Part shown: one piece after another, positions 35,101 through 35,890 of the stretch | Position numbering within the stretch: position 1 is the first letter of the stretch | Layout of the letters: every line of letters begins with the position of its first letter | Assembly (NCBI GenBank): GCA_964016885.1 | Contig: OZ024741.1 | Coordinates: 288,238,001-288,302,000 of the forward strand | DNA length: 64,000 nt | Reading direction: 5' to 3' | From: Eledone cirrhosa | Lineage: Eukaryota | Program-made: the position numbers and the translations under genes | Notes under the pieces: generated by a model | The model's database searches: none | Told to the model about the DNA's origin: nothing | The model's input: the letters and a program-made list of their open reading frames with translations, nothing else

Positions 35101-35890
35101 TGGACAGTCGTTGCGGCCTTCCATTGAAAATATAAACTCTCGTCAGAAGGTTCTTTTCACTCGGAGAATATAAAATTCCCGAGTTCAAATTACGAACTGG
35201 CGCTATTCAAAATTGTTCCCGAGATGAGAATGAATAATGTGGAAGCAATTCTGTCCAGTGCCGTGTGTAAAGATAGAAGCGGAGGCAGGGAGGTCAGTCT
35301 ACTACCACTATAAATAGCAGCAGTCAGAACGACCAAATTTTATCTCGACCAAGAGGAGTATAATAATAATAAAGTATATATCCCTACACGCAAAAAGCGT
35401 CTAGGGACACATGTATTGTCACATGTATTTATTAACCTGCCATTGAACCACATTGGCATATGGTTGGACAATACATGTGTCCCTAGACGCTTTTTGCGTG
35501 TAGGGATATATACTTTATTATTATTATACTCCTCTTGGTCGAGATAAAATTTGATCGTTCTGACTGCTGCTATTTATAGTGGTAGTAGACTGACCTCCCT
35601 GCCTCTGCTTCTATCTTTACACACGGCACTGGACAGAATTGCTTCCACATCGTTCATTCTCATCTCGGGAACAATTTTGAATAGCGCCAGTTCGTAATTT
35701 GAACTCGGGAATTTTTTATTCTCCGAGTGAAAAGAACCTTCTGACGAGAGTTTATCTTTTCAATGGAAGGCCGCAAGGACTGTCCATTTATTTTTGAGAC
35801 TCGAAACCGATTCGGTAAAGGTAACCATAGTGAGTACAAGAAAGTTTTTAAAATTTATTTTGAAACTTTTTCTTATTTGCTAAACCTTGA
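35101..35890. mobile_element. 320-bp inverted repeat element in (TA)n with a complete hammerhead
   Basis: Arms 35101-35420 and 35467-35786 are near-identical. The right arm extends to ~35890 and completes the ribozyme. Confidence 0.85.
35736..35822 (+). ncRNA. Type I hammerhead ribozyme with extended stem II
   Basis: acctt-CTGACGA(35741-47)-gagttt...agactc-GAA-ACCGA t TCGGT-A-aaggt. Predicted GUA cleavage after 35817. Confidence 0.85.

Follow-up and report, generated by a model that had tools for sequence, protein, structure and literature searches.

A two-armed non-LTR retrozyme insertion in Eledone cirrhosa, with a predicted long-armed hammerhead and a probable Neptune-type helper

We analyzed a window of 64,000 nucleotides of the Eledone cirrhosa genome (contig OZ024741.1, positions 288,238,001 to 288,302,000), in which a fold-back sequence lies between two TA microsatellites. 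The features of the locus and of a separate neighbouring element are listed below in window coordinates.

35052-35100, no strand: (TA)n target microsatellite, left side (TRF)
35100-35420, minus strand: inverted arm, unit ~62-382/386, 3' end outward (inverted-repeat and unit alignment)
35421-35426, no strand: junction filler ACATGT, 6 nt, with a second occurrence 13 nt upstream in the left arm (sequence)
35427-35891, plus strand: direct arm, unit 22-486 of the 486-bp monomer, stopping at E1, the main fixed end (...CTAAACCTTGAT, then TA)
35521-35528, plus strand: E2 site, the second fixed end of the family (unit 116/123), unused in this copy
35729-35735, plus strand: GAAAAGA, 5' strand of a covarying helix, just before stem I (covariation, folding)
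35736-35822, plus strand: type I hammerhead with an intact core, predicted cut after 35817 (GUA) (descriptor, folding)
35736-35740 and 35818-35822, plus strand: stem I, ACCTT and AAGGT
35741-35747, plus strand: core CTGACGA
35748-35802, plus strand: stem II (55 nt), with a 6-bp base helix, a U-rich internal loop, a distal helix AATGGA/TCCATT and a capped hairpin
35755-35761, plus strand: TCTTTTC, internal-loop strand of stem II, partner of 35729-35735 (covariation)
35803-35806, plus strand: core GAAA
35806-35816, plus strand: stem III
35892-36009, no strand: (TA)n target microsatellite, right side (TRF)
33188-34885, minus strand: separate neighbour, a 5'-truncated Neptune-type Penelope-like element (PLE) with a GIY-YIG piece, a minimal hammerhead (33412) and an inverted end of its own

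The inverted arms (35096-35420 and 35467-35791) measure 325 nt, share 98% identity and lie 46 nt apart, as the original prediction had described. Of their eight mismatches, one falls in the TA flank and seven within the element. Only these 7 of 320 element positions separate the arms, six of them private or near-private changes (three per arm) and one a family polymorphism, which backs the earlier view of a young insertion. The 46-bp spacer consists of the 6-nt filler and unit 22-61 of the direct copy, a stretch beyond the reach of the inverted copy. The right end of the element is at 35891, and the locus amounts to 0.96 unit and an inverted part. Two observations concern the immediate surroundings. 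Several private changes in six bases at 35839-35844 strengthen a local hairpin with 35866-35877 and resemble the outcome of a quasi-palindrome template switch. An inverted pair of LINE reverse-transcriptase-like pieces (34899-34987 and 35998-36086, 84% identity), both with the same stop position against TA, brackets the insertion.

The locus is one ordinary copy of a protein-free 486-bp repeat with hundreds of copies in the genome, as emerged from the family search that had been proposed along with the prediction. The unit length was set by an array of 3.1 units (locus record L005) that carries the motif in each full unit; the GC content of the unit is 38%. A 23-mer of the motif has 687 exact matches in the 3.0-Gb genome and the control has none; a similarity search over the 40 best of 2486 candidates gave 86 matches. 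No coding frame was found over the locus, where the longest stop-free frames reach 61-77 aa when frames through TA repeats are excluded, and no LTR-like direct repeat was found at the element ends. Subfamily B is ~85-90% identical to family A. Subfamily C is ~77-81% identical and retains both fixed ends as well as the long stem II; it was traced from a loose end in contigs of three runs (of unrecorded kind, at most one sample). These contigs contain the family and its variants, and among the pieces listed none spans the locus. Two matches 1.5 kb apart, followed as a lead to an autonomous partner, proved to be a local duplication.

Other hammerhead-like repeats occur nearby and elsewhere. Two of them sit within 2.6 kb: a 467-bp spaced pair at 36737-37398 (minus strand), whose core-like motif lies at 37360, and at 37450-38450 a 431-bp tandem whose ends are inverted, with a hammerhead-like motif at 37767. 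Hammerhead-like motifs of another TA-inserting family lie at 21112 (minus strand) and 51837 (plus strand), and this family occurs in locus records L110-L140; L140 (G000:C13:12533500-12543400) is a large array of short hammerhead units in both orientations, in blocks ~2.8-3.0 kb apart. Directly after the predicted cut in the studied element, 35819-35837 holds an 18-22-nt motif, AGGTAACCATAGTRAGTA, which recurs at L082:3152-3169 and in L110-L138. It contains the splice-donor-like words GTGAGT/GTAAGT and is partly changed in subfamily C. As a lead to a partner element this shared 18-nt motif was rejected: in the other hammerhead family it is oriented opposite to that family's ribozyme, and no ORF accompanies it.

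The insertion footprint was counted over 91 distinct A/B insertions, obtained from 105 loci after removal of 14 duplicates; the samples were picked by similarity or exact motif and are no census, so the proportions are biased accordingly. Two orientations are present in 36 of the 91, and in 35 of these both 3' ends face outward. The outward-facing pairs mostly combine E1 (unit 482-486) with E2 (unit 107-130), in 26 cases, and the other nine, the window locus among them, combine one standard end with another one. The 55 single-orientation insertions stop at E1 (45), at E2 (8) or elsewhere (2), and a TA repeat abuts 116 of 126 family 3' ends. The original prediction had read the left arm as truncated by (TA)n, which is probably wrong: there too the 3' end of the element faces the target. 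We infer that this outer end, which is AT-rich and lies inside stem II at unit ~382-386, was a non-standard second priming site. The RNA sequence across E1, E2 and the left end of the window locus is AU-rich, which fits priming by short pairing to cut (TA)n. In 46 of the 91 insertions an arm is longer than one unit, and therefore the template would have been multimeric or circular, the data fitting either. The family combines partial tandems, an inverted 5'-truncated copy, a tail and a microsatellite target. Passages of PMC8557442 describe PLEs with partial tandems, inverted 5'-truncated copies, optional tails and a microsatellite bias, and those of PMC11167929 a PLE enzyme that cuts and extends both strands, with internal initiation in vitro. 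Because its insertion footprint matches that described for PLEs, the family is a non-LTR retrozyme by the features tested.

A fold-back could also be made at the DNA level, by a replication template switch or by repair at an existing single copy, rather than by reverse transcription. The non-standard outer end of the left arm, the 6-nt filler at the junction and the older 89-nt inverted pair of LINE pieces around the locus would agree with such an origin. Against it stand the outward-facing arrangement of all but one of the two-orientation insertions, most of them at two fixed sites and in TA, the absence of flanking DNA from both arms, and the like construction of the neighbouring Neptune family. 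These observations already largely refute a DNA-level origin for the family, and we regard it as very improbable for this copy. Reverse transcription of the two arms into a TA target is the reading that we retain.

The fold-back had also been proposed as a substrate of ADAR or siRNA pathways. In a read-through RNA the arms would form a hairpin of very high stability (-603 kcal/mol), which makes a functional host dsRNA element physically possible. However, no host gene was recognised by eye in the window, where the frames resemble transposon debris, and the arms are decaying through private changes. Private changes in the family copies give no clear excess of the editing signature (27 A>G vs 23 T>C, p=0.087). 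Since arm overlaps of at least 300 nt occur in 7 of the 36 two-orientation insertions, the fold-back in the window is unremarkable. It is a routine by-product of insertion, and a function of its own is unsupported; a host dsRNA role appears quite unlikely to us.

Candidates for the enzyme that inserts the family are found close by. The Neptune-type PLE in the window, 1 kb left of the insertion, is decayed and has 77% DNA identity to the candidate helper family; relatives of it with intact frames of ~1155 aa are present in the genome. The intact-frame Neptune family carries a minimal hammerhead, and its copies reach (TA)n with either a short or a long end. Its full-length protein has no Pfam match, and the Neptune label is given from a GIY-YIG match, a reverse transcriptase motif and a CX4CX2C linker compared by eye with passages of PMC8557442. 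The inverted arm of the window Neptune element is interrupted at 34591-34768 by a short repeat with 21-bp flanking direct repeats, and a 44-bp LINE-like piece with a second copy at 36299-36342 lies at its inversion junction.

Compared with 30 Neptune loci and 8 full-length stretches, the retrozyme unit has no homology beyond the window locus and short chance-level matches. Motif and homology searches, with Neptune as the PLEs sampled, did not turn up an autonomous element whose terminal repeat is homologous to the unit. A search for the long-stem-II motif with another stem III as a partner gave a single match, which is unrelated. A possible link between the two kinds of element is seen in hybrid insertions. 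Neptune-like protein sequence occurs in 18 locus records, and the 12 examined include two seamless retrozyme-Neptune hybrids (L213 and L214), both with no TA at the retrozyme-Neptune joint and with TA on both outer sides. L213 opens with TA and a retrozyme arm in inverted orientation from E1, followed by a short piece in direct orientation, an inverted piece of Neptune and 1.9 kb of Neptune sequence that runs to the long end, before TA again. L214 opens with TA and 622 nt of retrozyme, which stop at unit 400; sequence of a second Neptune family, oriented likewise, then runs to the short end and is followed by TA. The Neptune sequences of the two hybrids come from different families, whose DNA identity to the intact-frame family is ~94-96% and 68%. 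A single reaction using two RNAs may explain the seamless hybrids, although they could be nested insertions with target deletion. The hybrids point to Neptune-type elements as candidate helpers of retrozyme insertion. Two further junctions were seen: at L010:1500-2050 a 486-bp unit meets a different hammerhead family directly, without intervening TA, and at L005:2440-3424 the trimer is adjoined by reverse transcriptase-like coding sequence, which by its motifs may resemble a PLE of another clade.

The hammerhead on the plus strand of the right arm was found as predicted, with a GUA cut site and a stem II insert of 55 nt. The core elements CUGANGA, GAAA and UH, the pairs G10.1-C11.1 and A15.1-U16.1 and the three helices are all present. 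The earlier drawing of stem III as ACCGA-T-TCGGT (5 bp and a 1-nt loop) does not hold for the monomer, in which stem III has 4 bp and a 3-nt loop (ATT). The motif descriptor has one match in the window and none in each of 30 block shuffles. An Rfam scan returned no hammerhead at the gathering score, and at E<=5 just three unrelated weak matches. The 55-nt stem II is probably the reason for this miss, and long-armed hammerheads are therefore likely undercounted.

Conservation of the stems among other copies was proposed as a check, and they are indeed kept, with covariation. The long stem II is common to the whole family and is kept with compensatory changes in subfamily C; the nine matches in which stem II is shorter all prove to be family copies with an internal deletion. 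In subfamily B the distal helix has U-A replaced by C-G (33/23 rows), and the base helix of some copies has A-U or U-A where others have G-C. In an alignment of 26 distinct rows from A, B and C, 89% of the cells are paired, and double-sided changes occur in 9 of 31 pairs; as many arise in 6 of 500 shuffles and slid controls are lower, both kinds of control ignoring relatedness. The alignments leave out the second motif of L011, L032, and rows that carry deletions or whose flanks are broken; the set A3 is a subset of 27 that was selected by hand. Mismatches in the 5' core number 6 in 467 cells, vs 4.5% across the unit. In many copies of subfamily C, A-G or A-U replaces G10.1-C11.1. The covariation indicates that the long stem II arm is kept by evolution. 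In the U-rich loop, Watson-Crick covariation favours a duplex rather than a triple helix of the known ENE-like kind. A reading of the stem II insert as a SECIS element, whose consensus includes an AUGA/GA core, was rejected by eye, as this core is absent.

The ribozyme is predicted to self-cleave after 35817. Of 132 arm 5' ends, 13 lie in unit 403-418, the stretch that includes the predicted cut at 412/413, where 4.6 would be expected; this interval was chosen post hoc, the ends are scattered and three of them come from one locus. Passages of bioRxiv 10.64898/2026.07.22.740005 report that 8 of 9 predicted retrozyme dimers from Xenopus failed to cleave. When a transcript of the whole locus is folded, the arms pair with each other and stems I and II have probability 0, hence the long hairpin and an active ribozyme would be mutually exclusive in one molecule. 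The window copy contains one complete motif, and release of a unit-length RNA from it is therefore impossible.

The GAAAAGA strand before stem I and the TCTTTTC strand of the stem II loop are both altered in subfamily C, where they read GAGAAAA and CTTTCTC and two of their pairs are compensated. Among the 26 rows these pairs are A-U in 18 and G-C in 7, and G-C in 18 and A-U in 8. The strands pair at 6-7 of 7 positions in 24 of 34 motif rows of subfamily C, a count in which some insertions are double-counted and some misses come from anchoring, and one copy (L202) has a further matched change. Helix pair 2 is an A-G mismatch in subfamily B, and 15 of the 26 rows are unpaired at this position. 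As a control, family A has 11 perfect 7-bp complementarities, three of which show two compensations in C: two are registers of the flank-loop helix itself and one is unrelated (unit 225/375), that is, one of nine others. This unrelated pairing, of unit 225-231 with 375-381 (window 35630-35636 and 35780-35786), has two pairs compensated between subfamilies A and C, competes with the distal helix and is apparently lost in subfamily B; it may reflect chance or an alternative fold. The flank-loop helix is probably real, even though its two swaps belong to a single branch and its purine/pyrimidine tracts are low in complexity.

Such a helix could act in two ways. Neither of its strands is otherwise paired in the active fold, and both lie next to stems I and II; for this reason a pseudoknot brace is the likely role, favoured over an off-switch. 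In the off-switch reading GAAAAGA:UCUUUUC forms first and traps the 5' half of the core in a hairpin, so that a monomer or circle would stay uncut and cleavage would need a dimer or a protein. ViennaRNA, run with the 5' flank, does prefer the helix as a hairpin (P=0.93-0.98) and opens stems I and II (at most 0.01), but it is unable to score pseudoknots. In subfamily A the circular fold likewise forms this hairpin, whereas in subfamily B it forms the hammerhead. The insertions with an arm longer than one unit would also suit an off-switch, as would the palindromic stem III of subfamily C (CCGCGG, CCGCGCGG), which is of the dimer type described in PMC4209133. The compatibility of the helix with the active fold weighs against it, and we hold the off-switch to be a minority possibility. 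An inhibitory pseudoknot is known from a plant-virus satellite hammerhead. In many hammerheads pseudoknots form between stems I and II (PMC3088659).

With the brace as the preferred role of the helix, we consider it probable that the locus is one two-armed non-LTR retrozyme insertion, likely made by a Neptune-type PLE, in which stem II likely forms a pseudoknot that braces the predicted ribozyme. In the mechanism that we propose, tandem copies would be transcribed and the hammerhead would cut the RNA into unit-length or circular molecules. Judging from the insertion ends, a helper endonuclease would then cut (TA)n, and the free 3' ends would anneal to AU-rich spots of the RNA and be extended, usually from E1 (unit 486) for one strand and from E2 (unit 116/123) for the other. 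As the architecture of the insertions shows, the two cDNAs are joined at their 5' ends into back-to-back arms, and their overlap is the fold-back; at the window locus the second end would have begun at about unit 382-386. Covariation suggests, finally, that GAAAAGA 5' of stem I would pair with the internal loop of stem II and replace the usual contact between loop 1 and loop 2.

The fold-back itself is unimportant, being insertion debris. The family, by contrast, offers a handle on the way in which hammerheads of animal retrozymes function when the usual loop-loop contact is missing, with three natural subfamilies as ready-made compensatory variants, and on which enzyme moves retrozymes. PLEs have so far been proposed as the movers on the grounds of co-occurrence and of terminal-repeat trees; evidence from hybrid insertions would be of a more direct kind. 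A broader reading, which we put forward tentatively and would not expect to hold in full, is of an animal retrozyme lineage in which the pseudoknot between the stem II loop and the 5' flank tunes monomer and dimer cleavage, and whose hybrids record one two-template Neptune-type reaction. If true, the hybrids would identify the helper and demonstrate priming on both strands from two templates in vivo, with retrozyme RNA for one strand and helper RNA for the other.

This analysis adds the covariation of the flank-loop helix and the retrozyme-Neptune hybrid insertions. A literature search over titles, abstracts and passages, with subscription papers and supplements outside its scope, found no description of a pseudoknotted retrozyme hammerhead with a long stem II. 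Metazoan non-LTR retrozymes, as presented in passages of PMC7229834, bioRxiv 10.64898/2026.07.22.740005 and PMC7761336, share with this family a non-coding unit with one type I hammerhead; they likewise occur as monomers to trimers, with low GC, a self-paired predicted fold and PLEs in the same genome. The 486-nt unit exceeds the 170-400 nt of Cervera and de la Pena 2020 (PMC7229834) and lies within the 51-972 nt of Li, Clavereau and Pollet 2026 (bioRxiv 10.64898/2026.07.22.740005). The family differs from these retrozymes in its 55-nt stem II that covaries with the 5' flank, in its two fixed 3' ends and in its inverted arms; it is also known from genomic DNA, with circular RNA and cleavage predicted. 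Mussel retrozyme hammerheads are likewise without the usual loop contacts (PMC7229834), and non-LTR retrozymes have already been proposed as non-autonomous derivatives of PLEs (PMC4209133; PMC7761336; bioRxiv 10.64898/2026.07.22.740005).

Neptune-clade PLEs share the partial tandems, the inverted 5'-truncated copy, the optional tail, the (TA)n target and a terminal-repeat hammerhead, according to passages of PMC8557442, PMC11167929 and PMC4209133. Unlike them, the family has no ORF, and the gap between its ends is ~116-123 nt, not 30-40. Its hammerhead has a full stem III and a long stem II, in contrast to the minimal motif of the local Neptune family. A different form of pseudoknot in hammerheads is found in PMC11300833. 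The closest likeness for the proposed brace is found in pseudoknot-braced hammerheads (Perreault et al. 2011, PMC3088659), where Watson-Crick pairing is predicted to align stems I and II, as here; panels B and C of that survey omit highly repetitive type I motifs. In the present case, as predicted from sequence, the flank strand pairs with an internal loop of a lengthened stem II, and the type I motif is a repetitive one from an animal.
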